Assembly (NCBI GenBank): GCA_973895155.1
Contig: OZ316894.1
Span: 6,968,234-7,032,233 of the forward strand
Origin: Marsupella aquatica
Lineage: Eukaryota; Plantae; Marchantiophyta
Direction: 5' to 3'
DNA: 64,000 bases
Shown here: piece by piece, positions 4,361 through 64,000 of the stretch
Layout of the letters: every line of letters begins with the position of its first letter
Numbering within the stretch: position 1 is the stretch's first letter
Position numbers and translations under genes: made by a program
The notes under the pieces: model-generated
Seen by the model: only the letters and a program-made list of their open reading frames with translations
What the model was told of the DNA's origin: nothing
The model's database searches: none

Positions 4361-4365
4361 CATAT

Positions 4366-24003: not shown

Positions 24004-24127
24004 GTGGTTGGTACAACAACGCGGGTTGGTACAACTACGTGGTTAGGTACAACTACGTGATTAGGTACAACTATGTGGTTAGGTACAACTACGTGATTAG
24101 GTACAACTATGTGGTTAGGTACAACTA
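24004..24127 (+). repeat. ~7 x 18-bp tandem repeat in the U3 region of LTR A (also ~30078-30201)
   Basis: Unit GTGGTTAGGTACAACTAC and variants. Confidence 0.85.
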
Positions 24128-28500: not shown

Positions 28501-29849
28501 GTGTGGATTACAATGAGGTCTTCTCACCAGTTGCTAAGTACTCTACAATACGACTATTGTGTGTACTTGTTGTAATGTTTGGTCTGCTCCTAGATCAGAT
28601 GGATGTTGTCACAGCTTTCCTCTATGGCACATTGGAAGAGGTGATCTTCATGAGACAACCGCTAGGTTTTGTGAAGAGAGGACAGGAGGAATTGGTTTGC
28701 AGATTGTTGAAATCCTTGTATGGGTTGAAGCAATCACCAAGACAGTGGAACAAGCGGTTTGACGATTGGATTCGGTCACAAGGTTTTCACAGAAGTGTAT
28801 TTGACCCTTGTGTGTATTTGAAACCGGTGAAGAATGTTGTCTTTGGGTTCATTGTTTTAGTACTTTATGTGGATGACATGCTAATTGCAGCCAAGGATAG
28901 GTCTGAGATTGTTAAGCTCAAGGCACTGCTTAGTGCAGAGTTTAAGATGAAGGACTTAGGGCCAGCTAAGAGGATTTTGGGTATGGAGATCACTAGGGAC
29001 TTGGAGGCTGGCAAGCTATGGTTGATGCAGAGCAGCTATGCGAGGAAGGTAATTGCAAGGTTCAACATGGAGAATAGCAAGCCAGTAAGTACCCCGTTGG
29101 CTCCACACTTCAAGTTATCATCAGCGTTCTGTCCTACGGATGACACAGAGAAGGGGTTGATGTCAAAGGTTCCATATGACAAGGCAGTGGGGAGTCTCAT
29201 GTATTTGATGACTTGCACTAGACCTGATCTTGCCATGGCTATGGGCAAGGTGAGCAGGTACATGTCGAATCCAGGGAAGGTACACTGGGAAGCAGTGAAG
29301 TGGATTATCAGGTACTTGAAGGGTACCGTGGATCATGGTCTTTTATTTGATGCGAATGCAAAGAATGCTAGATCATTGATTGGCTATGTAGATTCTGACT
29401 ATGGACAAGATTTGGACCGAAGAAGATCAACAACAGGATACGTGTTCACACTTGGCGGTGGATGCATAAGTTGGAGGTCTACTTTGCAGAAGTGTATTGC
29501 TCAGTCTACTACAGAAGCGGAGTATGTTGCAGCTGCGGAAGCAGCAAAGGAAGCGATTTGGTTGGATAGACTTATCACTGAAATGGGATTGCCACAGGGG
29601 AATGTGAAGCTCCATTGTGATAGTCAAAGTGCGCTCCACCTTGCTGTGAACCAGGTGATGGACAGCAGAGTGAAGCACATTGACGTCAGGTACCATTTTA
29701 TCAGGCAGGCTGTGTCTGATAATTTGTTTGAGCTAGTCAAGATTGATGGTAAACTCAACCCGGCTGACGCATTTACCAAAGTGATTCCTTTGGAGAGTTT
29801 CTCTAGACACCGTGACGTATTGCAGGTTTTGCAATTGCATCACAAGTAG
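25541..29849 (+). pseudogene. gag-pol: Copia A gag-pol
   Basis: Zn knuckle CWKCNQVEHFKQDC, protease WILDCACSFH, GAG-pre-integrase LWHSRLGH, integrase LRSDNGGEY, RT LYVDDML, RNase H KHIDVRYHF. TAG at 26243, TGA at 26573, frameshift near 27283. Confidence 0.93.
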
Positions 29850-30589
29850 AGTTTTCTTAAACATTCATTGTAATTACTGATATATGCTCTTCCTCATTCC
29901 TATGTATTAGGCTACGGCTTAGTTCTGGTTTGCTCTAGTTAGAGAGGGAAACCGGTTTGGTTCTGTCCAGAACTTCCCGCTGAGGGATCATATACATTGG
30001 CAGTATTACTCTCCCCTAGACCAGAGTCAAGGGGAAGATTGTTGGGTATTTACTCTTACGTCTAGGTTAGGTATGACGTGGTTGGTACAACAACGTGGGT
30101 TGGTACAACTACGTGGTTAGGTACAACTACGTGATTAGGTACAACTATGTGGTTAGGTACAACTACGTGATTAGGTACAACTATGTGGTTAGGTACAACT
30201 AAGTTGCACACTATATCATAAGAGGCATGTGTGCTTGGAGAGGTAGAACCAAGGCTCATTGTTATGGAGCCACTTGAGAGATAGGGAGAGCTTACACTGT
30301 GGAGACTCGGTATAGCCGACGGGCTTAGAGTTCAGTAAAGCTCTCTTGTGTGTTCCCGTGGACGTAGCCTCAAGGAGGTGAACCACGTATCTCTTGTGTC
30401 GACTATTGTGCGTTGGATGGTTCATGGGCTTGCCGTTGCGATCGTCGTCTATGCTCAACAGATTAGCTGACAAGTGCATTGGCTTCACAGCCCGTTATAC
30501 AAGGTACTATAAAGTTGAATGAAACTTGTAGAATTGTAATGAGTATGTTCTCCAAAATGTATTCCTGATTTCTATTCGCTGATCAGGTC

Positions 30590-31066
30590 ATGCTCGAGCG
30601 ACGCATTTTTGTACCCTTCGTGGATCCTCCGGAATGGGGGAATGGCGCCCTGATGGACCAGCTAAGGAAGCTGGATGAATCACTAATTTTAAAGATTTTC
30701 AAGCTGGTAGCAAAAGCATTTTATAATAACGCATATCACTTCTACGTAGACCAGGTAGGGGGAGAAATTTATATCCGGTGGGATAGATATGCTGCATTTC
30801 CTAGAAGTATTATCCTGCTTTTTCTTAAAACCGATGTAGTAAAACGTTTTATACTGCACTGCTGTCATGTTGTGAAGGGCAATCCTGCCTATGAACCAGA
30901 ATTCTATGCCCACAACAGACGTAGAGCATTCGATGAGATTCAGGATGTGATTGACCAGTTGGACAATCCTCTTGCTACCGAGTTTTTGATTGACACTGGT
31001 GGGAAGTTATATTCGTATAGGACTCGTCAACTCCCCCTAGGCCTCTTTGTCCATTATTTAGGTTAA
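30590..31066 (+). CDS. Hypothetical 158-aa protein (Sola-like element cargo)
   Basis: Clean ATG ORF with globular-like composition inside the element; no family recognised. Confidence 0.45.
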   Translation: MLERRIFVPFVDPPEWGNGALMDQLRKLDESLILKIFKLVAKAFYNNAYHFYVDQVGGEIYIRWDRYAAFPRSIILLFLKTDVVKRFILHCCHVVKGNPAYEPEFYAHNRRRAFDEIQDVIDQLDNPLATEFLIDTGGKLYSYRTRQLPLGLFVHYLG

Positions 31067-31462
31067 CTTATGTACCTTGTTTATGGACAAATGTCCTTGA
31101 CAATGGTGAGATGTGTCAGTATTGCACAAATGCCTGTTGTGATGTTCCGTCACGCCGCTATTCAGTAGCTGTAGTTAATCTTGAGACCGGTGCCACAGAT
31201 TTTCATTGGTTGTGGGCCTATGATCATAGGATCACTCATATACCCCAATGGCCCAAGAAGCTAATCTCTCGCTTTGTTGTAGCGCAATTTGATCTTGGGT
31301 GGGATGATTGATTAGGCACATTATCACATGTACACTCGGTCGTCAATTTAAAGAAGGCTCACTTTTTGTTTGGACCACTTTTGCGATAATTTTATCGGTG
31401 TTGGTCTCATTTTCAAATGTTGACTGTACGTACGATAATGTAATCTCGACCGTCAATTTACA

Positions 31463-31758
31463 CTTGGGGGTTTCACTTCCACAAAAATGGCATATCACGT
31501 GCAACGAAGAATAGGGTCATTTTATTGGTTCTAAGGGAAGACTTAAGAATTTTTGTAGAAGAACAATAGGGTCTTTTAAATTCAATTTTGAGACTTATAA
31601 GAACATTAGGGTCTTTTTAATCCAATTTTTAGAATATTCCAAGAATATTCCAACTTTATAGGGGTTAAAAAATAATGTTTTTTCTTACATTTTAGGGGGT
31701 CCGAGGCCTAAAAACGTCGCAGGCGATGGGGAGGTCCCCATATAGTGAGACCCCCGAG
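31463..31758. mobile_element. MITE (same family as 5091-5396) nested in the Sola-like element
   Basis: Termini CTTGGGGG...CCCCCGAG; TSD AATTTACA / AATTTATA; reverse complement aligns by eye with 5091-5396 along its length. Confidence 0.75.
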
Positions 31759-32346
31759 AATTTATATCGTGCTCATATTTTTTTGCGATAATTTTATCGG
31801 AGTTAGTATCGCTCGTGGAATGACCTAATGCTTGTACGTGAATGAGGACTTTCTGAATTCATTGTATCGATGTTTGCATGCCAGTTTTTGCTTTTTGGGT
31901 TTGTCAGAGCAATAAATTTATCGCTTCTTGCATTCAGATTTGCAGACTTTGTCATCATGGGTCCTAGTGGGAAGAGTGGATCTGCCGAGGCTGAAAGTCT
32001 CATGACAAGCCTCACGAACGCGATTTGGACAAGCGAAGACATTTGTGAAGAGGTCAAGTTCATCAAGAAACCGTGATTCTTCCGCGACGCCAGGTTACAA
32101 TCCAAGGATATGGCAGACTGTGAGTCTCCTATCCTTTGGGTCCAGATGCAAAAACCCGCAAAGGTTACTCTCTCGTTTGGCCCCGTTGTTGGTGTGGCAA
32201 TCTGTGAGTACTTGATTAGCCAAGGAGAGGCAAAAGTGTTGAAAGAGGGTCTGAGTTTCTTGACAATGTGTGGAGGCAAGGGATTCACCTCTATCATTGT
32301 CACCATGGAGAACTTTCTTGAGAAATCCCTTGAGAGTTACCCTGAA

Positions 32347-35300
32347 TGTTAGATATTGCTCTAGTCTTGTGACTCTTGTGCTAACCACAGTTAGGCTAAC
32401 TCGGGTTAGAACCTAGCTAAGGTTAGCGGTAGTGCTGTTGTGCATATAGCCAGGGCTGATGCCAGACCCTGGTGGAACTTAGGCTCATTGTTACGGAGCT
32501 AGTTGAGAGATAGGGAAAGCTTGTGCTGTGGATGCTTGGTATGGCCGGTCGGCCTAAAGTGCAGTAAAGCTCTTGTGTGTTCCCGTGGACGTAGCCTCAT
32601 GTGGAGATGAACCACGTATCTCTCTGTGTCGACTATTGTGCGTTGGATGGTTCATGGGCTTGCCGTTGCGAATGTCGTCTATGCTCAACAAGTGATATCA
32701 GAGCATGCCTGGGAAGTGACGAGGTTTTTTCGTGACAGGTTTTTTCCAGCGTTCATTGTCGATGGTACATTCAGAGTTTCATCGCATGAAACTCGATTGT
32801 GTGTGGCTGAGCGGATAGGTTAGTGAGAGGGCATTCTAACGGTGGTTAGAGCTTGCTGATCGGTATCCGTGGTGCGGAGGAATTGAAGTTTGCATCATTT
32901 AGGGTTTATTCGTGTTCGACGGTATTTTGGGGGAGAAACCAGAGATCGTTTCTTCAACGGTGTGAGCTGTGCGGTGTGCGGGGCATCGCATGTGATAGTT
33001 CAAGTTGAAGGTTGGAGCGTGCTGGTCGTTTTGGTATCTAGTTTGCTGACGTTTGCAGAACGAGTGCGTCGTGACGAGTGAATTAGGCGTTCTGGTTTTT
33101 TGACAAGCTATGGTGCTTGTTTTTCCCTGAACCGGATTACTCGTCGTGACGCTTGACTCGGAGGAAGAAACGTGAAGTGCTGAGGCTCAACGGAGAGATC
33201 GTGGCGAGACGATCGTTTTGAGTCCGGGATTGGCACTTGACGCGGAGTGAAGGCGACGCAACAAAAGTTCTTTCTCTGGTGGAGCTTCAGACGTGCCGGT
33301 GCAATTTGGAAACATTTTCATGTTGGTGGTCATCACTTTTCTCATTGGAAACCAAAGCGGAGGTGGCTGAGGTTTGTAACACGGCCTTTGTGTCATTTTG
33401 GGCACATTTTTAAGGTTAGTTTAGGGCATTTTTTGCCCCAATACGGCCCCAATACCCGACAAACCAGGTTCGCCATACGCCCCGGCGCGCACACCGGCCT
33501 CCCACACCCCTTTAAGTGTGAAAACGTGCTTTTGAGGGCCCAAATACGGCCAAAAATGCCCATATACGGCCCAAAAACACGAAAATACGCGCGATTTGAC
33601 CCCTTTAAACCCGTTTTTCACGTTTGTTGTTGTTTATACGCAATTCTGGCCGCGAATACGCGCGCCTTTGCCAGGGGCTTTAAGACCCCTTTAGAGTGTG
33701 TTTTTCTGAATTTTTTTCTCTCCTCCTCCTCATTGGTTGTGCCTCATCCCGGGCCCTGTGACCCTCCGTTTTAACCGCTCTGACAGGGGGAACGGCCCCC
33801 TGTGAGCCCTGTTGGACTGTGCAGGAATATTCCCAAAAAACAGAGAGCTGTTTTTGGCCGTCACACAAAGATTCCATCCGCCGCACGGTAACTTTTTTGG
33901 TTCTTTTTTGGTGAGGACGTTGCCACTGGAGTTAGCAACGCGGCGCACCGATCACATCGCGATTCCAACGACAGGTTGTACTTGGTATTTCGCTTATTCT
34001 CCGAGGTGGTCAAAACGGAGGAGTTTCCCAAGGTTTTACCCACCCCGACCAAAATTTGAATAACTTTTCCGTCAAATTTTGATTTTGATTTTGGATTTTA
34101 GTATTGGAATCCTAGCTTCGTGGGCTACGCGGCGGTGTTGAGTTTTGAGTTTTATGAGAAGTTTTGAAAAAAGACGTTTTTTCGTGATTGTTTCATATGA
34201 GTGACTCGGAGGATACTGGAAGAATTGGCGTCGATGGAGCTTCAGGATCACGACGGTCAGACGGAGAGTTTGAGGAGGAGCTGCTACCGTTTGAGGAGGA
34301 ACTTATAACACCGGTACGATCACCGGTGCGGCGTGCAGTGGAGGAAGCTGTGTTACTACCAGAGCTGTCGGTAGTAGGGAAGAAGAGGGAGATGGCTAGA
34401 TTTGGAGGAGTGAAGTTTGAGGTGGAGAAGTACGATGGTTGTACTGATTACTTGCTTTGGGAGAAGCAAGTGAAGGGTGTTCTACGAGCCATGGGCTTAG
34501 CTCATCTGCTTTCATCGCGAGAGCAGTATGATGGAGAGGAGGAGATTTCAGTGAGGCAATGGAGACAGGAGCAGGTGATTGCTGTCAATGTAGTGATGCT
34601 ATATCTCAAGCCGCACATCATCAAGCAGCTGGATGATTATGCGGATTGCGCGTCACTGTTCAAGGCTCTAAGAGAGAAGTACTACCGGGAAGATGTGTCA
34701 GACCGGCTGTACAAGAAGTCTCTCTTGATGAGCCTCAGACTCAAGGAAGGGAGCAAGATGCAGGATCACCTGGATGAGTTTAATAGTCTAGCGGTTGATC
34801 TGTCAAACCTGGGAAAAGGAGTTGAAGATGAGGATAAGGCCTTGCTTCTGCTAAGCTCCTTACCGCCATCATATCAGGGCTTGAAACAGGTGCTCTTGTA
34901 CAGAGATCTGAAGTCCATTTTGTATAATGAGATGGTAAGCTCTTTACTGTCTGATGATGCTCAGAAGAAGCTGGGTCAATCACAGACAGCATCTTCTTCT
35001 GGCACTGCGCTCAATGTGAACAAGGGAAGAGCAACGCAGCGCACAAATGGGCAAAACAGGTTTAGATCTACATCACGGGGGAGATCTAAATCGAGGAAAA
35101 TCGCAAGAGAGGAAGCCTCTTGCATGTTGGAATTGTGGCAAGCCAGACCACATGAAAAGGGATTGTCGAGTAAAGGTCCCTACTGCCTCTGCTAACGCAG
35201 CATCGAGCTCGCATGAGGTAGATTTATTCGATGATGATGACATATTGTGATGTCAAGGTTATGCTCTCAACGTAGTGTCAAATCCAGGTAGTGATGACTG

Positions 35301-38300
35301 GATTCTAGATAGTGCATGTACTTTTCACATTTGCTCTAGAAGAGATTGTTTCAGTTCTTACACGGTTTCCAACGGGTCAGTGTTGATGAGAAATGGAATC
35401 CCATGTCAAGTTGTTGGACTTGGATCTGTAAGATTTCAGATATTTGATGGTGTTGTGAGAACATTGAGGAATGTGAGACATATTCCCAGCATGATGAAAA
35501 ATCTCATTTCACTTGGAGTTTTAGAGACAAATGGCCATCAGTGGAGTTCTGCTAATGGTGTCCTTCAGGTTTTAACTAGTACTAAAGTTGTATTGAAGGG
35601 AAAGAGACATTGCAATCTATACATTATGGAGGGCAGTGTAGTCTATGATGAAGCCAATGTAACCTTATCTCATGAGGAGACGGCCCGGCTGTGGCACTTC
35701 CGTTTGGGCCACATGAGTGAAAAAGGTTTGGTTATTCTTCAGAAGAAAGGATTAGTTTCTAATTTGCAATCTTGTAAGTTGGAATTTTGTGAGCACTGTG
35801 TGCTAGGGAAGCAGCACAGGAAACCCTTCAGAGTTGGAACTCACACCAACAAGGAGGTACTTGAGTATGTACATAGTGATGTGTGGGGTCTCGCCCCTAC
35901 TCCCTCACATTCTGGATGGTTATACTATGTCACGTTCATTGACGATTACTCAAGGTATGTGTGGATATACTTTCTACACAATAAGTCTGATGTTTTTGCC
36001 ACTTTTAAGGAGTGGAAAGCCCAAGTTGAAAATCAGACTGGTAATAAGGTGAGATATCTTTGATCGGATAATGGCGGTGCATACAGTTCTGGTGAATTTG
36101 GAACGTATTGTAAGGAGCAGGGGATTACCCGCCATCTCACAACAAGCTATACTCCTCAGCAGAATGGTGTTTCTGAGAGACTCAACCGAACACTATTGGA
36201 CTGCTCGAGGAGTATGTTGAGTCAATCATGCTTACCACATGAGTTTTGGGCTGAAGCTGTCAACATTGTAGCTTATTTGGTAAATTTTTCTCCATCCAGT
36301 TCTATTGGATTCAAGGCGCCATTTGAAATGAGGTACGTGCGTCTAGCAGATTACTCACATCTGAGGATTTTTGGATGTGATGCTTATGTGCTTACACCTT
36401 CCCAGCTTCGATCCAAGCTGGAGTCCAAGTCAAAGAAGTGCATTTTCCTTGGTTATCAGAAAGGTGTGAAGGGTTATAGGTTATGGGATCCAGTAACCTG
36501 TAAGCTAATTGTCAATAGAGATATGTCTTTTAATGAATCCAGATCATCAAAGGAGGGGGAGAGTTCTCAGGACTCCCATACTGACAAGGGGAAATCTCCC
36601 ATCCCGGACCGGGTTGAGGGGGAGATTAGTCATGATGTAGTTCATGACAGGAGAGATGGAGAAGCTCCGGGCTTGGAGCTGGTTCCTATGATGGAACAAG
36701 AGGAGCAAATTGTTGCTGGGGTACCTCAAATTCAACCAGCAGCAGCAACAGATCAGCCTGAGTCATCTATTAGAAGAACTTCCAATCGTTCTACTAGAGC
36801 TCCTACCAGGTATGGTCAATGGGCAAACTCATCTAAGCTAGATGATATTGACATTGCACCTGATGAAGATGATATGGCTTTGATCTTGGAAGAAGGAGAG
36901 CCTTCTTTGTATAGTGAGGTTTGTGCTTCAGAGCAGAAGCATGAGTGGAATGCAGCAATGCAGAGGGAGTTGCAATCTTTGAGTGACAACAAGACATGGA
37001 AGCTGATGGAGCTTCCAAGAGGTCAACAAGTGGTGGACAGCAAGTGGATTTACAAGTTGAAGGACAGTCCTTCAGAGGGTGGAGATAAGATCTACAAGGC
37101 AAGGCTTGTTGCCTAGGGGTTCACTCAGGAGAAAGGAGTGGATTACAATGAGGTCTTTTCACCGGTGGCTAAGTATTCCACAATTCGGATCTTGTGTCAG
37201 CTTGTTGTGTTTTTTAATCCGGTGATGGATCAGATGGATGTTGTTACTGCTTTTCTCTATGGCAACTTGGAAGAGATGATCTTCATGAGACAGCCACTAG
37301 GCTTTATGAAGAAGGGCCAAGAGAACTTAGTTTGCAGATTGCTCAAATCCTTGTATGGATTGAAGCAGTCTCCTAGACAGTGGAACAAGCGGTTTGATGA
37401 TTTCATGCTTGCTCAAGGTTTTACAAGGATGGTGTATGATCCTTGCGTGTATACGAAATCAGTCAAGCATGATGTATTTGGTTTCATCATTCTGGTGATC
37501 TATGTGGATGACATGCTAATTGTGGCTAAAGATCAATCTGAGGTTGACAGTCTCAAGGCGAAATTGAGCGCTGAATTCAGGATGAAGGATCTTGGTAAGG
37601 CCAAGAGGATCTTAGGGATGGAGATTTTTAGGAACTCTAAGACTGGACAGTTGTGCTTGAGTCAAGGCCAGTATGCGAGGAAAGTACTTGCACGATTCAA
37701 CATGGAGAACTGTAAGCCAGTGAGTATTCCTTTAGCTTCACATTTCAAGTTATCATCGGCTTTCTCTCCTACGGATGCTGTGGAGAAAGGTTTGATGGCT
37801 AAGATTGCTTATGAGAAGGCAGTAGGCAGTCTAATGTATTTGATGACTTGTACTAGGCCTGACTTGGCCCTAGCGATGGGCAAGGTTAGCAGATTCATGT
37901 CAAATCCAGGGAAGGTACATTGGGAAGCTGTGAAATGGATTCTCAGGTATGTGAAGGGAACATAGGACTATGGATTACTATTTGATAACAGATCAAATAG
38001 AACGTTAGTTGGCTATGTAGATTCTGACTATGAAGGCTGTCTGGATACAAGGAGATCTACAACTGGGTTTGTATACACTCTTGGAGGAGGATGTATCAGT
38101 TGGAAATCTACCTTGCAGAAGTGCATATCTCAGTCTACTACAGAAGCAGAGTATGTTGCAGCAGCAAAAGCAGCAAAGGAAGCAATTTGGTTGGATAAGT
38201 TGATCGTGGAGATGGGTTTAGAGCATGGAAAAATGACTATAAACTATGATAGTCAAAGTGCTCTTCACTTGGCTGCTAACCAGTTGATGGATAGCAGGGT

Positions 38301-39020
38301 GAAGCACATTGATATCAGGTACCATTTTATCAGGCAAACAATGTCTGATAAAACTTTTGAGCTAGTCAAGATTGATGGAAAGCTCAATCCCGCTGATGCT
38401 TTTACCAAAGTGATTCCTTTGGAGAGTTTCTCAAGACACCGTGCTACTTTGTAGGTTTTGCAGTTGTAGTGCAAGTAGAGTTATTTAGCAATGTGTGACT
38501 GTTTGTATATGGATTACTCATTCCAGTTAGGCTACGGCTTAGTTCTAGTTAACCCTTAGTTAACCCTTGTGGTTTTTAGGGGGAGACCTGGTTTGGTGAT
38601 TGTCTAGAACTTCCCGCTGAGGATTCCATATGGTAGCATTTAGTCCAGTCCCCAACACAAGAGTCAAGGGGGAGTTTGTTAGATATTGCTCTAGTCTTGT
38701 GACTCTTGTGCTAACCACAGTTAGGCTAACTCGGGTTAGGACCTAGCTAAGGTTAGCGGTAGTGCTGTTGTGCATATAGCCAGGGCTGATGCCAGACCCT
38801 GGTGGAACTTAGGCTCATTGTTACGGAGCTAGTTGAGAGATAGGGAGAGCTTGTGTTGTGGATGCTTGGTATGGTCGGTCGGCCTAGAGTGCAGTAAAGC
38901 TCTTGTGTGTTCCCGTGGACGTAGCCTCATGTGGAGGTGAACCACGTATCTCTCTGTGTTGACTATTGTGCGTTGGATGGTTCATGGGCTTGCCGTTGCG
39001 AATGTCGTCTATGCTCAGCA
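32347..39020 (+). mobile_element. Full-length Ty1/copia LTR retrotransposon B (older)
   Basis: 344-bp LTRs 32347-32690 and 38677-39020 (8 mismatches seen, all transitions), TSD CTGAA, mutated PBS TGATATCAGAGC, PPT AAGGGGGAG. Confidence 0.97.
34197..38454 (+). pseudogene. gag-pol: Copia B gag-pol
   Basis: CWNCGKPDHMKRDC, WILDSACTFH, LWHFRLGH, YVDDML, KHIDIRYHF; stops at 35248, 36061, 37114 and 37963, frameshift near 35100. Confidence 0.93.
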
Positions 39021-40419
39021 CTGAAGATGCGGTTGTCGCGGAAGTTAGGTCAGCAAAAGTAATGAATCTTATGGGCCCAGCTTGAGTGTGCCAGTTTGTC
39101 CAAGATCTGGTTCTGGAGTCAGCGTTAAGAGAAAGAGAATAAGCTGGAGTTTATCCACAGCCCCGGAAGGAGTGGAAGCCCCGATCGATATGGAGCCTCC
39201 GATGCTTGATGAGCGTTTGCCTCATTCAGATATACAAGCCGAGGTTTGATCGGTAAGTGCTACCAAACTTTGATTTTCTATTGACAAAAGAGGATTCCGA
39301 TAAAAATCTCGCTGTTTCTTTTGCAATCTAATTTCAAATGGCATTTTCTAGATTGATGAAGAGGAGGAGACTGCTCTTTCAATGTATGAGACTGACGCCA
39401 TCAAAGCGGAGGTCAGTCTGCTGATGCAACGAAGGGTTCAAACGACAACTGTCCTCTTGCATGTCGACAATTTAATTTTTGATGAAGCTGGAGAGAAGTC
39501 AACTTTGATCAGACCAGTGGACAAATTGCATGTGGAGAATATCAAGATTCTTCTAAGGAAAAACCCCACTAACTTCAGCGCACCGTTTGTGCTGTGTGTG
39601 GATCCGGAGGATTGTCCCACAATCGAGGATTGGGACATTCTAAAGTCCAGAGTATGGAAGTATAGAATTATTGGAGGAAATCATGGTGCTTGGGCAAAGG
39701 CCGAGTTGTATAACATGTATGGGAAGCAGATTTATGGTGAGCTGGAAGCTTGGGTATACGCAGGACTTACCAAGTCGGAGGTCCGGAAGTTGGGCTTCCA
39801 GCACAATTATGACCAGGAGTATAGGAAGAACATGACTCAAATCGATAGAGTTCGTGCGTGCCACAATATCTTTGTTGAAATGGATGTAGGATCAAACAAG
39901 GATGTTCGCGAAGCTTGTTGTCAGGAATGTATGCTGCAATACACTCCCGGTGTTTGTGACAGCATGGCCAAACATGACCCAACATTCCAGATTGCTTTTC
40001 GAACGGGTGAAATTTGGGATCTTCAGGAGAAAGTTTTCCAGATGTGGGAGAAGGGGACTGTCTTGGATCGTGGCAACAACAAATGCAAAGGGAAAGGTTA
40101 AACCTTTAACGCTAAAAGAGATTAAAATGAATAGACTTGCAGGTGACCCAATTTAAATACTTTTCGAGGTCTTCAAGGACAGTCAACTAAGGAGCATGTT
40201 AAGCGGCTCTTGAATAGGGTCATTGGGAAAGTGATCACCTTGGATCAAATGCACAAGGAAGGGGAAAAGTTGAAAAAACTTTCCAAGGTGAAGAAATTAT
40301 TCTTGCAAATATCTGGGCAGCCCGACTGGGCAACGTGCAGAGAAATGTTTCCAAATGAGACAGATGTTTCCGTCCTGGGAACATGGGCAGAGAAGTTGAG
40401 CGAAGCGGTAAGCACCCGT

Positions 40420-40575
40420 CTCTCCCCGAGATTTTTATCGGCCTTGCCATTCCATTAGTAGATTTTTGCATTCCTCGTTCCATTCAAAAATCATTGCGAG
40501 ATTTTTATCGGCCTTGCCATTCCATCAGTACATTTTTGCATAACTCGTTTCATTCCCGAGATTTTTAACGACTTT
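40420..40575. repeat. Intronic tandem repeat (2-3 units, 60-70 bp) carrying palindrome variant CCGAGATTTTTATCGG
   Basis: Variant copies at 40426, 40496 and 40556 within the MTase-gene intron. Confidence 0.75.
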
Positions 40576-42189
40576 CGTATTCGTTAAGCAATTTCATTCT
40601 GATTGGAATTATGTGCGACCTTTGATACAGCTGAAGATTGGGTCGAAACGGAAAAATAAAGTTGTTCCGCCTGTGCAATATAATTTGGCGGGGGAGGTTA
40701 TTGTTCCCTCCGCTGACATCCCGTATGTGTTCAAGAATTTTGTGCTTGCTACAATTGATCGGTACAACCGGCTCCAGGCGCTAAGCGAGGACGCACGAGA
40801 AGCCGCGGAGCAAAATGGAAAAATGCTGACGGAGATTCTTTCTCTTACTATCTCCATGTTGGGGATGTTCGAATTTTGGATACTTTTGTGGAGGCAAAAC
40901 CTTACACTCTTACCGTCGCCGACATTCCGTATGGTTTTAATGCACTTGGTTCGGAGTTTGATGAAGTGTCCTTCCCGGAAAAGGACGTTGTAGATATGGT
41001 GAGAAGTTTTTTGAACATGACAGCTCCTAAGCAGTGGAGGTTTGTTGTGATCCATTCATTACAGCAAACAAATATGGTCATGTCTGCGCTCGAGATTGTG
41101 TGCAACTGTGGGGTTGAGTCTGGAATTTGGGAGAAGACCAACATTCATGAGCGTCCCGCCGGTGCTCGATTGGCGTGGGGTTTTCAAAAACTGGTCGATG
41201 GGATTCTACAGCGAGGAAGGCATCCGGAACATGAACATGTACAATTTCCAACCGGATGAGTCTCGCATCAATATCATCAAGGTTCCATGTGTAACCAAAA
41301 AGTCTGTTGATCCGTTGGGCTATGTTGTGAACCCATACCAAAAGCCTGTTGGTTTGGGTGCTTGGTTCGTTACTCATTTCTCGGAGAAAAATGACTGGGT
41401 TATGGATCTTTGCTGCGGAACCGGATCCATGTTAGCAGCGGCTCTTCTCAATTCTCGCCAGGGTTGTGCGGTCGATAAAAGTGCTGCGCAGATTGATTTT
41501 GTGAGACATCGGATTATGACTCTAGAGTCAAACTGGAATTTATATGATGAAGCACAGATTGAAGGGCAAGGCGGCGAAGGTCTAGAGATTCAACCACCGA
41601 TTAGAGGCCAATTGGGAACATTGGGGACTTTGACTTTCACTGTTGAAGTCGTGAAGGAGGTCGAGAATGAAGAAGAAGCCGAAGAACCTCCCAGAATGCC
41701 TAACGAGGATGATCTCAATGACATGTTACTGGATTAGGAAATTGTTATCTGGTTGTATGATAGTTAGGTTAGGTTAGTTTAGGTTATGTTAGATTATGTC
41801 AGTCCCACTTCTCAATATTCAGAGAATGGAGTGTGATAAATTTATCGCAATTATGTTTGAACCCGATAAATTTATCGGACATTGCATTATACTCCCTTGT
41901 TTGTCATGGTGTTCTAGCTGGGGACTTATCGGACTTTGCATTCCACGCTCTAGCTATTCCACTCCCTTATTTGTCACGATGTTCTAGTTGGGGGAATGGA
42001 GTTGTCGATAATATTATCGAAGTTTGCATTCCACGCTCTAGCTAGTTAGTCATTACAATCAATTAAAAAAAAGATATAATTATAGCTTCGGAGAACAACA
42101 TACTTAGTCCCAGATGTTCACGACTGCGACCATCCTCATGGGAATGATAACCAGCTTAACGATAACCATTATAACTTAAAACCTTTACA

Positions 42190-45100
42190 CTAGCTTCTAC
42201 TATCAACGACTACAGTGTCCATCATTGCATTTTGAATGATTCGTCTTGTTTGTACAGGGAGAGTACTATTTGCCAATAACGCAAAGTTATACGCATAAAC
42301 TGTAGTTTCTGCTAGGGACAGTTCATCCTCCAGTACTTTGTTAGACGAAGCCTCTTTCTCCGGATAATATCTGCCTTCAATTGCAGACTCCTCTTCCGAA
42401 TCCATTGCATACCAAGTGATTTTAATTTGCTCGGGGATGTTGTTAATTTTTGTGAGAATCTCAGTCACTTTTGCCATCCAGAATGGTCTTCCCTTTGGAT
42501 CCTGATGGGCTGCTACACATATCATTGAAAATTTAGTATTCACCTCTAGATCCTTGAAGTCTTCAATTTCCGTGACTTTTCTCCAACTTCCGGAATACAT
42601 GACTGTCCTCACACCCGCTATTTTATCAACCAAGATAGGTTCCATTGCTGCTTTCATAGGATTGGTCGTAGGTTCTCTCTGTACATTTACCTTGGGCCAA
42701 CTCCAATCAAAACTCCATTGTGCAGGTTCAGGTGGTGCTGAATCACTTCTTTTTGTTTGTCCAAAAAACGACCCCACCATAGCCGATCTTTGTCGTCAAA
42801 GTAATTGAATCCATCTTCAATTGCTCTCCGATACTTTTGAAGAGTCAAAAAATGATTTTGCGCCGCCCGCTCGTCTTGTTCCTCAATACCATTCTCTTGA
42901 TCATCATTGTCTCCTGTTGCTCCCGTGGCCGACTTCAATGCAATTTGTGGTGCGACCCACATTCCAGATGAAGGAATGTATCGAACAAATTCCACGGGCT
43001 CCCCCAATCTGTTGTCATGGAAAGATGTTTGGCATGGAAGACAGATAGAGCACTCCCATCTTCGAGTACTCTGGTAATCCAAAATTGTTTCTGAGCACTT
43101 ATGTCGTGGAGACTACACAGAACTTGACCATCCATATCCTTGTCATTTGCTTGATCCTTGTCAGACACAAATTTTTTGAAATCGGCAACCTCATCGACAA
43201 AAAATATTTTTGCCGTAGGATTGTAGGATTCCTCTATGATTGCGGAAAGAGTGTCCAATCGAAAAGCTTTTTGCTTGTTCAATTTTGAAGAAAACTTGCT
43301 AAACATTTGATCAATTTGGTCATGGGTGTGCCCAACCAACAGAAAACCAACCTTTATTTTTTGGAAAACACCTATCTCCACCAACATGTTCAAATATGCC
43401 ATAAGATATTTATTCTTGTTTTTCCGAGCAGTGTTATCAAGCTGGAGGTAAAGCACTGGAGGGAGCGGACCTTCCCAGGTATTCAGAATATGCTGAATAA
43501 CGTGGATGGTCAGGTTGCTATCATTGTGAATATTTGGATAGTTCAAAAAAATATTTGAACTCAATTGTTTGTTGAAGATCAAACAACCCACTATGTGTAC
43601 AGGGATAAAATACTTCTCATCCATATTCTTTGGACACCGAATGAAATGAGGTAACTCTCTCTTCTTTTGATCCATTCCATCAATACAGATGCCCAAATAT
43701 TTCTCTGGACTCTTGTAACATTTGCTCCGGTGCTTTGCTAACTTCTCCCTCTCCACTGCCTTCCGATGTTTGTTTAGCAATGTTGAGAATTTTCCTACAA
43801 TAATAAAAACGTTTAGAACTTTGCTGGCCTGACAGCGATAAATTTATTGGGTTCAGTATTCAAACACTTGATTTGATAACCATAATGTTAAACCGTGACA
43901 CCGATAAATTTATCGGGATAAGTATTCAAACAATATATTCACACATTACCAAAGAAGAAGCATGGGAATACTCAACCCGATAAAATTATCGGGGATAAGT
44001 ATTCAAACTGTTCAAACGATATATTCACACACATTACCAAAGAAGAAGCATGGAAATACTCAACCCGATAAAATTATCGGGAGTAACACACGGGTTTAGA
44101 AACTTACTCTTTTCTACTTCGAGTGTTGCCTTATCACGAAGTGCTTTGAATTCAGTACACGGGGCGTAAGTGGAGAAACGACTCCTTTTGGGGATGCGCA
44201 CGCGAGGAAACTCTTTGTTCCAAATGCGAACAAACCACAAATATGTCACGCCTTGTTCTTGGCGCATTAGAGTTTCAGACTGGAAGGCGTCAAAAACTTC
44301 TGTTTTTGTCCAATTGTCAGGTAAATGAAAGATATCCTTGTTGGGGAGACTCTCTACATTTGTGGTAAAAAAATCATCCAGCCACTGAACAAGACCAAGA
44401 TGTGCGGTCGATTTTTCTCTACAAAATGTATCGATCTGTATCCAAGAAAACATGTTCTTCAAGATTTTTTGGAGACGATTATTTCCTAGGAAAAATAATT
44501 TCTTAAAACCACTCCGACAAAAGGATCTACCGCTAACTGAGTAACCACTTGCACCGACATGCCCACCCTTCACACATCCTCTTAGAAGTACGTTCTTCTC
44601 TTGGTAGGATAGCCCATAGTAATATGTGCGTTGTTTCATCACATCCAGCAGACCCAAATTCCTCAGACAAAAATTATCACAACATGGATACTTATAAATT
44701 TCTTTCATTTTGTTTCTATTCAATTTATCATTTATCACATTGTCTTTCCTAGTAATTCGATCTCTATCTTTTTTACTAGGCTCATTTGACTTCTCTATAG
44801 ACTGAAATCCGATGAGAACATTGGCATTTTCCTCTCCTTTTGGTACCTTGCGAATAGGTGCATCACTCTCTGCTGAGCTACCATCCTCCACAGATCTCCT
44901 TGACGCATTTAGAGGGGCACTGAAAAGGTGACTAAAACTATTCCCTTCTACAGCTCCTTCTAAACATTCAGACACAACTTGTGCTATGATATCGGATTCT
45001 CTATCTCCTTCCTGATCTTTGTCCTCTGATCCACTTGACTCATCTGAAAACACAATTGGACTCCGTGGCTCTCTATACATAACCCGAACACCACTAAGAC

Positions 45101-45653
45101 CTCTCCTCGACACTTGGAGCCTGGAACCAATCACAGTCCGCCCTGGAGAACTTGGAGAATCTGGAACTCTGAACGGTGAACTATTCACACGTGCAGTATC
45201 AACAACTCCGCGAGCTGCAGGAAAATTGAGCACTTGTTGACCATGATTCCCACGGACCATTCGAGAAAGGGCCAAGTCTGGACTCGCAATCCAATTCCCT
45301 CGGTTGCTCGCACGTCCAGTCCAGGCAATGCAAAGACCGATCGCCATATCGGTCTTTGTATTTCTACCTCCTGATTCTCACCCGGAGACTGAAAAATTTG
45401 TCGTTGAATGTGGCGACTTGAATGCTGAGTGCAATACGCGTATCGGTCGCCGGATAGCCTCTCCATAACCCGGGATGGATGGCCTGAAGCGACGTCTTGG
45501 ACCTAAACCTGGGATTGTAATTTTCTCATTCCTTGGCGATGGAATGCTCAAGAGACGATGCTTCTCAGGTTTACTAGGCGACACATAGTAAGAACTGGGC
45601 TCAGGACCAGAACTTGCATCAGAATCTGAATTAGCGTTAGAAAATTTGGGCAC
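42190..45653 (-). pseudogene. Sola-like DDD transposase (exon ~45650-44108, intron 44107-43795, exon 43794-42190 with frameshifts)
   Basis: Cys-rich N-part CCDNFC...GRSFCRSGF; catalytic-like CIDGMDQ, LYLQLDNTARKNKN and FLLVGHTHDQIDQMFS. Splice EK|RKFSTLL is in frame; in-frame TGA at 45378. Confidence 0.82.
43835..44085. repeat. Intronic repeats in the transposase gene carrying 4 palindrome copies
   Basis: Palindromes at 43835, 43901, 43977 and 44065; duplicated ATATTCACAC(AC)ATTACCAAAGAAGAAGCATGG.AATACTCAACCCGATAAAATTATCGGG. Confidence 0.8.
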
Positions 45654-45909
45654 TATTTGTGTGAGAGAGGTAGAGCTTTAAGTATGCACTTGGCAAACAG
45701 CGAGCGACAACATTAGGAGAGGATTCAACTGAACTTGAAGGTGAATCTATGTCTGATTGAGACATGGCTATCTAAGACACTATGGGGCTTTGCATTCCTC
45801 CCTCAATCAGGGAAAACAAATGGCTCAACCGACAAAATGTTGCTCCAAGAACACAACTCCCGAAACTCTACTCTAGATAATGACGCCAAAAACTTATCGG
45901 CGGTGACCC

Positions 45910-45916
45910 TTTTATA
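45910..45916 (-). promoter_or_regulatory. Candidate TATA box for the Sola-like transposase
   Basis: CACTATAAAAGG on the minus strand ~260 bp upstream of the transposase ORF; motif only. Confidence 0.3.
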
Positions 45917-46823
45917 GTGTCTGTTGAGGGGTTGGCCCACGTGGCCACTTTTGATTCGCCGTCTCGCTAAACGACAAAATAGCAGAGAAGGGTATATTTC
46001 TTGGATTTCCAATTTGATTCTTACACGTGCATCATGGAGAAATTATGTAGTTTTGAAATTTAAGCGATAAATCTATCTCATGTTGGTATTGCAAAAAGTG
46101 TTTCCTTCATATGGAAAGTTGCAATTTTGAAATTGCAGCGATAAATCTATTTGATGTTGGTATTGCAAAAAGTGTTTTCTTAATATGGATAGTTGCAATT
46201 TTGAAATTTAACCGATGAACCAAAGGATCTTAGTATTGTCGGCAAGTATTTTTGCCGTTCGAAGTTGCCACGATAATTTTATCGGATTGTGCATTGTTGT
46301 TGAGACAACGGCATGTTGACTATGCATATATGTGGTTACTATGGTCAATTGCGGAGGTAACTGAAAGGTAAATTTGACAAACTGTGCGGTAATTTCTTAT
46401 CGACTGTGATGTAAAATAGTTACGATAAATAACCAAAAACTGGGGAAATTGAGATTCGGTCGGAACTTTCATGGTTGAAATCCGAAGTCCGATACAGGTA
46501 TCGGACTTTGTTTGAAAAGTGGATATAGATTCTAGATAAGACGTTTCATATATCTTCGGAGAGCGTGAATATGAGGTTCTGGCAAACATTTTTTGGATCT
46601 AATTTTTCCTTGATAAATTGAATGTTTGTGACCATTAATTTCAGTGGTTCGGACCATTCCTGAATTTCTTGATTCAATCCAAACTCCGATATAGATTACA
46701 TTATTTCCCCAAAAACCTGTTTTAAATAAAAAAATTCACCAATTTTGTGAGATTCGGCGGAAAATGAAAACACACTTCTCATTTGCGGAAATAGTTCTCG
46801 TTCAGTCGGAAATTGTGTTTGAG

Positions 46824-48087
46824 GCAAGCTGCGCATCAGTTTGAAGCACGTCATCCAACTATTTGGGTGTGGGTCCCAAGGAACATGTAGTGACAGACTG
46901 GGACAGGGACAGCTGCTCGTGTACATGTGGATACTCGCTTCAGGGCAATGCCTGCAAACATCAGGTAAAACGCTTACCTTACCAATGACATCAATGTAAA
47001 TGGCCGCTTCTATTTGAGCTGCACCATCTCATGCACGACAACACCTCTTTGTGTGCAGATAAAAGTTCTGCTGCTTACACAGAAGATGTCAGAATTGGAA
47101 ATTTTGCATCAGCTAGGAACAAAGTTTGGTTCATTTTCCGGTGGTCTAGACCACCATTTCAATGTGAATAAAGGAGAGATTCCGCCACTGCCCATTGAGG
47201 TAGGCAATATCTCCTTCACATATGACAATGAGGATTTTTGGGAGCCAGGCCACCCGGATGTGACGGAGGAAATTGAGGTTTCACCGCAGTTTGAGGAATT
47301 TGAAGTACTCGTTAAGAGATGTTACAACTCCATCTCGTACCACCCAACCCTCTGTAAGCAAGCTCTAGCTGAGTTGAAGCATTGGGTGGAATCCTGCTTG
47401 AAGAGGGAGGCACAACAGAACATGGGAAAGCTAGAGCGAGAAGCAGGCCATGATAAACTCAGCCCTGTCAAAGGCACTGATAGAGCGACAGTCAGGAAAC
47501 AAGGTTGGGTTGACAAAATGATGGGTGCTAAAAGGACACAAAAACGGAAAGGGAAGGCCAATGATACAACCAACAAAGAGAACGTCACCCCATATCCACA
47601 AGGTGACTTGCGCAATTTAGTGTCAGGAGCAAATGCACCTGAGAAAATCCAGATCAAAAGAAAGGAAAAGCAACCATCATTTTAGGGCAGATTCGACAAG
47701 GAGTCTATAGACGCGCTTGCAGACATGTCTCATGCACTCACAGACCACATTTACAACGAGAAACCAATTGGGAGAGCCCTGACCAAGCGCTTGCGTAAAA
47801 GTGCGCTCACCACATCGTCCAAGAGTGGCCGGACCGTCAAAACAAGAGTCGCCCCACCATTTGAAATGGAGTCGGTACTGACCGACGCCTCAGAATCAAG
47901 CGTGCTCAAGTCTCCTCTCACGCAGACGACAATGGGCATGCTTGGAAATATACACATAGGGTCGAGCCAGGCGTGGGCAATGTCACCCAATTTCAGCGAC
48001 ATTTTGAAAGCTTTTTCTGCAGGAGTAGGGTCCACCGTGGGTCGGCCAGGTGTAGTTGGGCATGTAGTGTCCATTGCGGACGACTAG
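46824..48087 (+). pseudogene. MULE transposase, 3' part with SWIM zinc finger
   Basis: After the TSD the frame reads ASCASV*STSS...DSCSCTCGYSLQGNACKHQ, then intron 46965-47058, then IKVLLL. In-frame TAG at 47683 followed by an ORF to 48087. Confidence 0.85.
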
Positions 48088-48639
48088 TGAACTTTGCGCC
48101 AAGCGCTGGATGTATTTTACTGCGCGTCGGTGCTAAAAGGATATATTTTACTATCTTTGCGCTTTTGGCATGCAACGCCATTTTAATGACATCACATTCA
48201 GCGCATGTGTTCCATGGTTGTAATTGCCTTATTACATATGACGTTGCCTCAAGATATGTGTTGACATTGTAACGCCAGCATGGCATGGGACTGAGAATAG
48301 AATGACATGGTGTGAACTATATATTCAATATATTGCAATGGAAACCGCAATGCCACAGTAAATAATGAAAATTTGTAACTATTTGGATATCATTGTCAAT
48401 GGACCCACAATGCAAAATGTCAATCTGGAGTAGTGAAGGCTGACTTCCAACACTCAAAAGTAACCATTCGTCTAAATGGTCGCCTCCAATTCATTAAGGA
48501 CGTCAGTAAGCATAACAAAATATCCTGGCTCATGCCGAGCAAAGCAAGGTGGCCTCCAAATATTACAATTACTAACCCAACACGTATTATGTCTGGGAAA
48601 CTACACATGACAAAGTGCATCGTTTGGTTTTAGACTCAG

Positions 48640-51095
48640 GTCCGTCGTCGGGCACTACGGACTGTCCAAACTGTCTAGCAAATTCTGAACATCATCAATT
48701 GCACTTAGTTGACGCTGCTGTGATCCGGTCCATGAGTTCCATAAGTGACTGTGGTGCAGTGGGTCGTAGGTCCTCGCCACCCGAAGTGCCGCCCATGGAA
48801 TTGGCCTGAGGTGACTGCTGTCCCACTTGGTGCATTTGGATAGTAGTTCGCACATGAATGGCATCCACTTCCTCCATAGGAGTTGGTTCAACAAAGTTTG
48901 GCTGCACCCATGGCTGGGATGGTCCAGCTTCACCAGGCAGGCATGGAAGTGGCGACACTAGTTCACCCTCCATAGGAAGAAGTGGTCCATTTTCAGATGG
49001 CGTAAGTGCTACCAACTCTGGGTCCGCTGGACTGTTGGGGTTCTCCAACACAATCTGTGGGCGTATCTCTCAGAAAATTTCTTCCACATCAGCGTCAAGG
49101 CAAAGACGCTCGTCCTTCTCTTCAGCATCAGACTCTGATATTGGCTCCTCATCTGATGTGTCCGTCCACACTGCCTCCAGTTGGACCTGTGCATGCAACA
49201 TTGAAAGTTTCCTCATTGAAATTTTGCCACCAATGTGCATGACCCTAAAATGTTGTTTACCTTCATGGTAACGTACCTGCTTCAGTGCTTCCTCGCTTGT
49301 GCATGAGTTCACCTTCTTGTACATTGCCACAATGTTAGGTGTGTAAGTGTCAATTGCCTTTTGTTTGCGGTCGGCCTTCCATTGTTTGTACATATTATCA
49401 CCCAATGTCTGATACCGTGGCCATCCATGTTTGTCATCCCAAAGAAGGTAGTCTTGTTTTGTACCCATCCAGTTGAGGGCTTGGTCACAAAGCAGTTGGC
49501 GCTGGACTGCCATGGCATCACATGTGGACTTCAATGGCTTTGAATGAGCTACCCAATGGCTCAAAGAAAGTTGACAACACCGAGGCTGTTCTGGTGAGGC
49601 GCTGAATGTCAGATTTGTCTAAATGAGCGTATGTACCATTGGCAATTTCAGAAAGGGCACGGTCCACCCATGAACAGACATATGACGTGTGCGGGCATTG
49701 GGAGAGCAATGCCTGCAAGCAAGCCCAATCGCGATCATGTATCAGACTATCCCATGCACTGAAGCCAAGTGTAGGCATGATGTACTTGAAGAAAATAATG
49801 AAAATTGGTTCAGATTCAACAGGTTGGGGGGTTCGTGCTCGGTTTTCCTCGAAGCATGTCACAAAGTGGCGTTGGGTACTTGACCTACATAAACATGGAC
49901 AATTTTATTAGTGTATGCATTGGGAGCGCACTCAAAAGTAACCATGTAGCAAGTCCACCCATCCAATTGACAGAGGTATGATCTGTTGCAAACTCACTTG
50001 ACTTGTCTCTTTGCAATGCTCCATCGTTGTCGCAGGGTTGCCCTTACATTGCAGTATTGCGGTGAGGAAACATCTCCTGGCTGCTTCCTTCTAGCAGCAT
50101 TCCTGGCTTCACGTTGCGCTTGGGCAACAGGATCATTTGTATATAGTGCTGGTGGGGTACCTTGGCTGATGAGGCCATGCTTCTTGAAAACATGGCAGCC
50201 ATACGTGCGGTGGGTCTTGAAAACCACATTCTTACATGGCAACATCTTACAGACTGCTCCGCCCCCATACACAAAATAATGAACTCCTTCTTTCGCGTGG
50301 GTTTTGACATGTGACTCCTGTATGGAACATCAGAGAACAAGTGTGAGGAAAGCCCATGTATAAGTATACAATGACATATAAAAACAAGAATTGGAGGCGC
50401 TGATGAGGGGGCAGATCCATTCTTACAATTTTGCAGTTTTTGCATGGCTTGGGTAAAGCTGCACATTTGCAAAACTTGATAGGCTTGGGCACACGTGAAC
50501 TCAATTGGAAAGAGTCCAAGTCCACTTGACATTTACTGTCTTTGCGGCTGCGTGTCTTTTGGGTGTCACGTTCAGACTCAGCTGGATTGCCTGAACCTTT
50601 GCTACATTCAGGTACAACATTTCAATATTGCCCCAAGCTTCTCGACTGCTCTCTATATTGAACCCCCACCTTTGCTTTTCGTGGAGTAAACCTGGTGGGA
50701 GGCGCTGGTTCTCCACCGTTGGATTTTCTTTTTGTGCCACATGAAGCAAGGACCATAGGAACGGAGGGACCCGACTCTACTTTCGTGAGGACCACATCAT
50801 CAACTTCTGTCAGTGGGCTGGGTCACCCCACTTGGCGAATGCGGCTTGGGCACATACGGTCGTGGAGAGGGCAGAGCCAACACAGGAGTGAGTAGACAAG
50901 GTGCGTTGGGAAGAGGGGGCGGATGACTTGGCCGGGGACTTGGCACATCCTTACGGGCTGGTGGTGGTGGCAGAGCAAGAACCGAAGGGTTGGGTTCAGG
51001 CATGGGGCTGACATCTAAGATAGGACTCTGCATGTCAGTTGGGTGGGGGCACGGAGTGGAAGACCTCCACATAGCCAATCTTTTGTTGGCAACCT
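48640..51095 (-). pseudogene. MULE accessory gene of unknown function, convergent with the transposase (fragmented, multi-exon)
   Basis: Successive minus-strand ORF pieces (Pro-rich 51078-50800, Cys/His 50272-49994, helical 49862-49070, acidic/Pro-rich tail) with plausible splice sites, inside the MULE TIRs. Confidence 0.5.
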
Positions 51096-51731
51096 GACAA
51101 TAATTGACGATGACAAAGTGAGTTACAAAGCGAGTGACAGAGTGAGTTACAGTAACAGAAAATGATTAACATTGTAAACTCATAGAAGTTATTTACTTAA
51201 TACGAGAAATCCCTAATCTGGATGAACACTGTAATTCCTGCCATAATCATGCACATTGTAATAAAACACTACTCTAAGACATGTAAATTGTGGCAAGGGA
51301 AGTACCTAATTCTTTGTTTGCGCCATAAACCCTGTCACCTGCAAGTGATTTCATGCAACCATAGTACGTGCTTAGTAAAATTCAGGAAATGAATAACAAT
51401 GTACGTTCCAGTTATTCAATTTTGCATGGAGTCGAACAATGATGGTATACAGTTCCAGGCAAATACATATGTGCCAGACAATTGATTCATGGCAAAACCG
51501 AGTGAGTTCTAGGCTTACAATAAAATGTAAGGAATGCAGCAAAAGCGGATGAAAGGAACGGTGAACAGTATGCAGGACACCATGTTTGAGATAAATATTT
51601 GTATGCTGCAAATAGGTATACAATAGTCCTGCCACTTGAACAATGAGTGTTCATTCAGGAGCTTGCCAGAGACAAAGTTCCTTCGAAAAGGAAGTTCCTT
51701 CCAAAACGACTAAGTTAATCAAACGCTAAAC

Positions 51732-63950: not shown

Positions 63951-64000
63951 ATAGTGTGATGCAGTGTAGTCTGAGACAAGCTAACGTTCTCGCCATATTG

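Follow-up and report, generated by a model that had tools for sequence, protein, structure and literature searches.

A transposon-borne gene for a predicted ParB-like methyltransferase and a conserved palindrome in the liverwort Marsupella aquatica

The closest described counterpart of the system reported here is a Plavaka DNA transposon of the red alga Bostrychia, which carries two genes next to inverted repeats, one PF01555-SET and one ParB-oxygenase, and was proposed to modify its own sequence (10.1101/2025.02.11.637652); published systems are compared here as described in parts of the cited sources. In a 64,000-nt stretch of the genome of Marsupella aquatica (GCA_973895155.1, contig OZ316894.1, positions 6,968,234 to 7,032,233 of the forward strand; hereafter the window, with positions counted from its first letter), we found a gene for a putative ParB-like methyltransferase riding on a multi-copy DNA transposon whose non-coding parts are dotted with a 38-bp palindrome. 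On balance, we lean towards the reading that a predicted dimer of this protein binds the palindromes of its own element and methylates adenine at them, to mark the element as self or to counter its silencing. An initial annotation of the same sequence had recognised the ParB and methyltransferase parts; it had missed the transposon around the gene, the pseudogene state of this copy and the conserved palindrome.

The likeness to the Plavaka genes PAG2 and PAG3 lies in a DNA transposon with a PF01555 methylase and a ParB-like domain, and in inverted repeats proposed as self-binding sites; the best match of the Plavaka ParB-like domain, 7BNR, also ranks second for the model described below. In Plavaka, however, the methyltransferase is joined to SET, and ParB to a 2-oxoglutarate oxygenase, on separate genes of an EnSpm/Plavaka carrier with repeat arrays beside PAG3, whereas here, comparing by description only, we have one predicted ParB-methyltransferase chain, a DUF7869 element, streptophytes and a dispersed 38-bp site conserved across families. 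VANDAL/VANC of Arabidopsis offers a second parallel, with an accessory protein encoded by the transposable element, motifs in the element's own non-coding DNA and family-specific variation of the motif; those of VANC21 lie in introns, between genes and at the termini of its element (PMC5735166). VANC rides Mutator elements, causes loss of 5-methylcytosine (5mC) and is not described as a methyltransferase in the part of the source compared (PMC5735166), whereas the present cargo would write a prokaryote-type mark and has a motif with a conserved frame and varying spacers.

Beta-class amino-methyltransferases of prokaryotic origin also occur in eukaryotes as host genes, namely MpDN4MT1 of Marchantia (10.1101/2021.02.12.428880) and the bdelloid N4CMT (PMC8885841). 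Both have an SPPY motif and write N4-methylcytosine (4mC), N4CMT with a chromodomain and DN4MT1 with no extra domain in its description; DN4MT1 is set apart from the present protein by description, without direct sequence comparison. DIRS and long terminal repeat (LTR) retrotransposons that encode a prokaryote-like adenine methyltransferase (DAM), proposed to favour permissive chromatin, differ in using another methyltransferase family, with an NPP motif and no ParB in the parts compared, and DAM-LTRs are reported absent from streptophytes (10.64898/2026.05.21.726589). Phage ParB-N6N4 fusions and ParB, Noc and KorB share with our predicted protein the domain pairing, the order of a ParB fold and a helical DNA-binding-like region, a predicted N-terminal dimer and a palindromic site; identity is only 10-20%, and the present family differs by GGNH(S/G/T) without the arginine, an extra N-terminal exon and a eukaryotic transposon context. 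Fungal DNA transposons carry TET/JBP genes (PMC12730594), and a survey of eukaryotic N6A-methyltransferases lists clades linked to ParB from haptophytes, chlorophytes and chytrids, of which none in the sections compared matches the present one (PMC4738411). ParB/methylase cargo of transposons is thus already in print; what seems new is the fused form, the DUF7869 carrier, the streptophyte hosts and the dispersed palindrome. No description of a fused ParB-beta-methyltransferase on DUF7869 elements in streptophytes, or of the palindrome, stood among the literature matches listed, a search with most subscription journals, Repbase and the bioRxiv supplements outside its scope, and the Bostrychia supplementary table of elements with accessory genes may bear on novelty.

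The carrier transposon and its genes

The element holding the gene spans 21661..46819 (25,159 bp, or 11,980 bp without two nested Copia elements). Its 26-bp terminal inverted repeats (TIRs), identical at 21 of 26 positions, are flanked at both ends by the 4-bp target-site duplication (TSD) TGAG (left TSD and TIR at 21657..21686, plus strand; right TIR and TSD at 46794..46823, minus strand). Its excision in silico rejoins an interrupted Mutator-like transposase frame, with one stop just beyond the join. Contigs matching the stretch at 80-100% likeness number 882-2,530 per run in all four public runs (two studies, two coded organisms); the carrier is a multi-copy family, these contig numbers not being a copy number. 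With TIRs, a TSD, a transposase gene and multiple copies, it has the features of a cut-and-paste TIR transposon, and the ParB-methyltransferase gene is its cargo, not a host gene lying among transposable elements. Both Copia inserts are recent; one (32347..39020, plus strand, TSD CTGAA) has LTRs identical at 336 of 345 positions and splits exon 1 of the gene, and the other (23966..30460, plus strand, TSD GATTA) has LTRs identical at 419 of 422. Observed/expected CpG ratios (coding parts of the element, 0.57-0.92; Copia, 0.38-0.48; Mutator transposase, 0.54) were too mixed to serve as evidence.

The gene has three exons on the plus strand, spans 31957-41737 and begins with an ATG at 31957. The initial annotation had its end right and its start, at 39352, some 7.4 kb too far downstream. 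The 5' part of exon 1 (31957..32346) encodes a conserved N-terminal domain of unrecognised fold and contains one in-frame stop. With exon 1 of two related metagenome loci, L001 and L002, it shares 33-34% identity (E 4e-19 and 1e-17), and Pfam matched nothing in this domain of the relatives. The degenerate 3' part of exon 1 (39026..39252) ends at a GT donor at 39253. Exon 2 (39352..40407) encodes a ParB-like nucleotide-binding fold, with GGNH at 39673-39684, and a helical DNA-binding-like region, and exon 3 (40631..41737) a putative beta-class N6/N4 DNA methyltransferase with an acidic tail. Both introns, 39253-39351 and 40408-40630, are of the GT-AG type as had been claimed, and the second, which carries palindrome copies at 40427 and 40497, has the same position in all five related loci spanning that point. 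A further GT..AG pair near 40098-40143 need not be an intron, since the alignment with the relative P0015 continues through it.

This copy is a pseudogene, with exon 1 split by Copia and the frame broken by four insertions or deletions: 14 nt are missing near 40065 and one nt near 40148, both in exon 2, and exon 3 is frameshifted by one missing nt near 40814 and one extra near 41188. Other copies, in contigs from the four runs, show the opposite state at all four sites.

Tail-to-tail with the methyltransferase lies a broken DUF7869 transposase gene (42190..45377, minus strand; Pfam PF25273, E 6e-50) with a probable intron at 43795-44107 (minus strand). A metagenome search returned 17 loci, six of them close relatives (57-66% identity, L001-L006) and 11 weak short matches. 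The same convergent pair recurs in four of the six (L002, L003, L004 and L006), and the other two end before the transposase. The methyltransferase, the ParB part and the transposase are under purifying selection, with dN/dS ratios of 0.12 and 0.07 for the methyltransferase and ParB exons (L004/L005) and 0.09 for the transposase (L003/L006); these derive from the closest pairs, most others being saturated at synonymous sites, and from open reading frames (ORFs) cut stop to stop, in which a few intron codons may be included.

The transposase has no sequence match in the PDB; a candidate acidic triad in IDGMD, LDNT and GHTHDQID may be catalytic. At its end, a conserved domain with an FWLAKV-type motif and no Pfam match (42190-42795, minus strand; L006:966-1480) presumably resembles Tudor/PWWP readers. 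We also assume a resemblance of the transposase motif to the Sola DDD transposases. Sola DNA transposons are defined with a 4-bp TSD, the length of TGAG in the one insertion seen here, and the short TIR, a size within range, three candidate aspartates and the occurrence in non-flowering plants are further likenesses (PMC10741241). Compared by description only, the 4-bp TSD and the three candidate aspartates would suggest Sola; a methyltransferase cargo does not appear in the Sola description as far as compared. Elements of CMC/CMCT (EnSpm, Chapaev, Plavaka) mostly end in 5'-CA..TG-3' (PMC12730594), whereas here, given the TGAG duplication, the ends are AACAC..GTGTT. Two plus-strand ORFs flanking the first Copia insert, 23202..23759 (no Pfam match) and 30569..31066 (no significant one), are possible further cargo, possibly a third cargo gene.

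Prokaryote-type domains, and the fact that ParB-N6N4 fusions are common in phages (10.1101/2025.10.10.680097), might point to contamination from bacteria or phages, or to a single-copy host gene that was domesticated in the manner of DN4MT1. We find either scarcely credible: the introns are spliceosomal and conserved, the gene is nested with Copia and outer Mutator elements, which bears out the eukaryotic origin claimed initially, and the copy is broken and lies within TIRs, so that this alternative is refuted for it. The closest phage sequences are 23-31% identical over part of the methyltransferase (best 15 of 268 records), and a phage search with the ParB part gave no match. Prokaryotic genomes returned segments of 41-64 residues only (five loci) and no close relative, and among viral contigs no relative of the methyltransferase or the transposase was found.

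Predicted domains and the modified base

Intact exon 2 of P0015, 55% identical to this copy, is modelled with a ParB-like fold (pLDDT, the predicted local distance difference test score, 87), which matches ParB, Noc and KorB (Foldseek E 5e-6). Its nucleotide-binding domain superposes with Z 11.3 and a root-mean-square deviation (rmsd) of 2.2 over 99 residues, in line with the ParB-like N-terminal domain named in the initial annotation; the helical region (residues 137-291) matches Spo0J-parS with Z 5.9 and rmsd 4.4 over 98 aligned residues, middling for a helical domain. Pfam and PHROGs scans did not detect the ParB part in this copy or its relatives, and it is visible by fold comparison only. 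P0015 is also predicted to form a homodimer through its N-terminal domain, scoring 0.49 against 0.00 for the best control, a pass that may reflect memory of ParB structures. The runs agree in at least 75% of contacts, with pLDDT of at least 73; of 30 solved homopairs, 21 attain the mark, and of 23 single chains none.

Across the 42 rows of the family alignment, G109 and H111 are each conserved in 39 and N152 in 40. The arginine of the GxxR P-motif is present in two only, departing from canonical ParB CTPases (CTP-hydrolysing enzymes), and the earlier remarks on its absence and on doubtful CTPase activity extend to the family. Its GGNHGAWA was less representative: most contig depth in three of four runs has C at 39691, which gives Arg, the Trp being specific to this copy. 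This arginine is required for nucleotide binding in tested ParB folds (10.1101/2025.10.10.680097), and nucleotide-gated sliding is doubtful because it is missing. A ParB-domain tree of 41 of the 42 rows (one short row dropped, midpoint root) places this copy in a well-supported clade, among land-plant sequences; its deep nodes are too weak to indicate a donor or the order of transfers.

In exon 3, motif IV (TLTVADIPYG, with DIPY at 40921-40932), QKP (41339-41347) and motif I (DLCCGTGS, 41405-41428) follow in the permuted beta order, where and as first reported. A second DIPY at 40715 is not kept in relatives and was rejected as the catalytic motif. The last fragment of this copy falls below the Pfam cut-off for N6_N4_Mtase (PF01555; E 4e-5, 24.1 bits against 26.7), which all three intact relatives scanned exceed (32-35 bits); of the two profile matches by which the annotation had meant to check itself, this one was obtained and the ParB one, in Pfam, was not. 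The exon 3 model from P0001, 78% identical over the stretch searched, has pLDDT 82 and resembles CcrM most (Z 22.6, rmsd 3.5, 230 aligned), then M.BceJIV, bdelloid N4CMT and M.MboII, consistent with the beta-class amino-methyltransferase proposed at the outset. MT-A70 proteins share the permuted fold at a greater distance (Z ~13), and to call the enzyme unrelated to them was an overstatement. A single-sequence PDB search with a methyltransferase fragment gave weak matches to small-molecule methyltransferases, dismissed because profile and fold searches put beta-class DNA methyltransferases first.

The top fold matches are N6-methyladenine (6mA) enzymes, and motif IV begins with D, never S or N, in all 50 motifs found among 62 profile-matching stored proteins (near-duplicates included), so that its D-type, noted early on, is general and favours 6mA. 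It reads DIPY, DFPY or DAPY in the family and canonical DPPY in two distant fused relatives, P0084 and P0091. The same self-targeting system might instead write 4mC, for instance at the CG within CGA/TCG, where it would keep out 5mC of the host: both characterised eukaryotic beta-class enzymes, N4CMT and DN4MT1, write 4mC (PMC8885841; 10.1101/2021.02.12.428880), N4CMT is the best PDB sequence match in a profile search, if a weak one (E 0.013), and the invariant core of the palindrome contains two CpGs. Those two enzymes have SPPY, however, and no family motif starts with S; with D throughout, DPPY in the two fused relatives and 6mA enzymes leading the fold comparison, we consider 4mC improbable.

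A methyltransferase domain that is catalytically weak or dead, serving as a DNA-binding scaffold in a protein that acts by binding or spreading only, appears more improbable still. It would fit the non-canonical motif IV, the relatives that have no methyltransferase, such as those of Haliotis (ParB-like plus Tudor) and Branchiostoma, and the DIRS DAMs, which have been called likely inactive (PMC4738411); yet motif I, QKP and D-x-P-Y are kept in all 12 close relatives spanning them, and selection on the exon is purifying, at the ratio given above.

The palindrome and its reader

The carrier element and the six related loci have in common a 38-bp palindrome of the frame AATR-N7-CGAK-N6-MTCG-N7-YATT. 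All 20 matches to CGATAAATTTATCG with at most two mismatches fall inside the element and outside its Copia inserts, where 0.17 were expected. The core CGA-N8-TCG occurs 19 times in the element, between 21809 and 46503, and once in the remaining 52 kb of the window; its starts are 21809, 22198, 22337, 22449, 22540, 23786, 31384, 31786, 39298, 40427, 40497, 41864, 42006, 43902, 43978, 44066, 45338, 46271 and 46490. Fifteen of these have an AATR arm 7 nt away. Each of L001-L006 has this combination 2-19 times; it is absent from the other 52 kb, from 16 weak-hit methyltransferase loci and from shuffles of the element (30 shuffles) and of L001-L006. One spacing dominates in each part: no spacer other than 8 separates CGA and TCG more than twice in the element, and the outer arm stands at spacer 7 in 61 of 75 sites, with at most 6 at any other. 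Without arms, the core exceeds shuffles in some GC-rich bacterial loci (6-10 against 2-4), and therefore only core plus arm is diagnostic. The full motif also turned up once each in 23 viral loci, none with homology to the family, and these were rejected as chance.

Coding blocks cover 56% of the element, and 18 of the 19 sites lie outside them. These stand close to the two element ends, upstream of the ParB-methyltransferase gene and within its two introns, in the gap between the convergent genes and in the probable intron of the transposase. This placement matches that of VANC-type motifs. Each related locus carries its own version of the repeat in the same non-coding slots, and since the spacing is kept across families whose synonymous sites are mostly saturated, we infer a protein-binding site for a symmetric dimer.

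The palindromes could be binding or enhancer repeats of the transposase, like the subterminal repeats of CACTA or hAT elements, with the ParB-methyltransferase an active cargo enzyme that works on something else, for example on the DNA of the excised element or on sites of insertion. Near-perfect copies stand ~150 and 330 bp from the two element ends (21809 and 46490), a transposase can itself activate copies of its element with sequence specificity (10.64898/2026.08.24.746577), and the motif here always accompanies both genes. Most copies, however, lie deep inside the element, in both methyltransferase introns and between the convergent genes, in the window as in the relatives, and the cargo has a predicted ParB fold, ParB proteins being readers of palindromes. 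We regard this alternative as rather unlikely and infer that the ParB-methyltransferase, not the transposase, reads the palindrome.

In the mechanism we favour, a dimer with the ParB fold would bind the palindromes scattered through its own element, and the methyltransferase would mark the element's DNA, the methylated base probably being adenine; the element would stay transcribable or be marked as self, the mark presumably serving to keep it active. CcrM targets GANTC. More speculatively, the 14-16-bp inner palindrome, of parS size, might serve for loading, and methylation might fall on the outer arms, whose GAATR resembles the CcrM target. That eukaryotic DNA transposons of one widespread family operate a small bacterial-type ParB-parS system fused to a CcrM-like enzyme, whose dimer loads on the 38-bp palindrome, spreads and writes sequence-specific 6mA on its own element, is a larger claim, which we advance tentatively and with some doubt.

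Several points weigh against this mechanism. On the side of binding, a Z of 5.9 for the helical domain is in the range reachable by a common arrangement of helices, the lack of the GxxR arginine could reduce nucleotide binding, and the fold models represent P0015 and P0001, not this copy. Binding by the ParB-methyltransferase and binding by the transposase, a possible activator of its own copies as noted, are not separated, the motif lying beside both genes throughout. On the side of the mark, DIPY in place of DPPY could reduce catalysis, N4CMT (Z 20.3) follows close behind CcrM in the fold comparison, and the domain family has switched repeatedly between 6mA and 4mC (PMC8885841). When DAMs of retrotransposons were assayed in E. 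coli, no 6mA was obtained, and abundant 6mA is described as lacking in streptophytes (10.64898/2026.05.21.726589). Finally, some palindrome copies of this element have CG-to-TG/CA changes, and therefore this copy was not fully shielded from 5mC.

Surroundings, relatives and implications

The carrier element is itself nested in an element at 18640..53275 (plus strand; ~310-bp TIRs, 8-bp TSD candidate), whose transposase it interrupts and which we take to be a Mutator from its TIRs, TSD and SWIM motif. This outer element measures 34.6 kb and encloses the entire nest; several ORFs without Pfam matches in its right part (~48000-52800, minus strand) are possible accessory genes. Elsewhere in the window, 79-nt inverted repeats (91%) and a perfect 29-nt pair enclose 11.5 kb at 298-11864, where a symmetric TSD was not found; inside lies a cytochrome P450 gene of two exons, recognised by eye and to all appearances intact (8207-10091, minus strand). 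A 1-kb element like a miniature inverted-repeat transposable element occupies 14790-15785, with 337-nt inverted arms (95%) and a 9-bp TSD candidate, and the end of the window (58579-64000) holds low-complexity plant-type ORFs, probably host genes, with an 81-bp tandem repeat (62350-62673).

A full HMMER scan of proteins with the ParB-region ORF gave 119 matches, and a word-indexed search for longer proteins gave none. Fourteen of the 119 also match the methyltransferase profile; the fusion therefore exists as one chain, as the initial annotation had supposed. Among 20 looked up, 13 could be named: Chara braunii (4), Riccia sorocarpa (2), Adiantum nelumboides (2), Ginkgo, Branchiostoma, Ptychodera, Haliotis and Clastostelium. 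The Pfam cut-off for N6_N4_Mtase is exceeded by one protein from each of Chara, Riccia, Adiantum and Ginkgo, where, judging from these sequences, one-chain ParB-methyltransferase fusions occur; the Ptychodera match is weak, and the proteins of Branchiostoma and Haliotis have none. In four Haliotis species, the P0059 cluster joins the family's ParB-like domain to a Tudor-like domain, without a methyltransferase, and is more than 90% conserved; it is possibly a domesticated gene.

These observations extend the idea of ParB/methylase cargo from red algae to streptophytes, in fused form. Enzymatic 6mA in the DNA of multicellular eukaryotes is contested, and resistance of transposons to silencing is known from few cases. 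In this family there is a candidate writer kept by purifying selection, a binding site predicted with precision and, in L002, a set of naturally intact exons, so that the questions of 6mA and of anti-silencing become directly testable. If the protein is indeed a ParB-parS-like writer of 6mA, land plants and perhaps some animals, from which this mark is believed to have been lost, would have a real, local source of it, and the enzyme would provide a targetable adenine writer.

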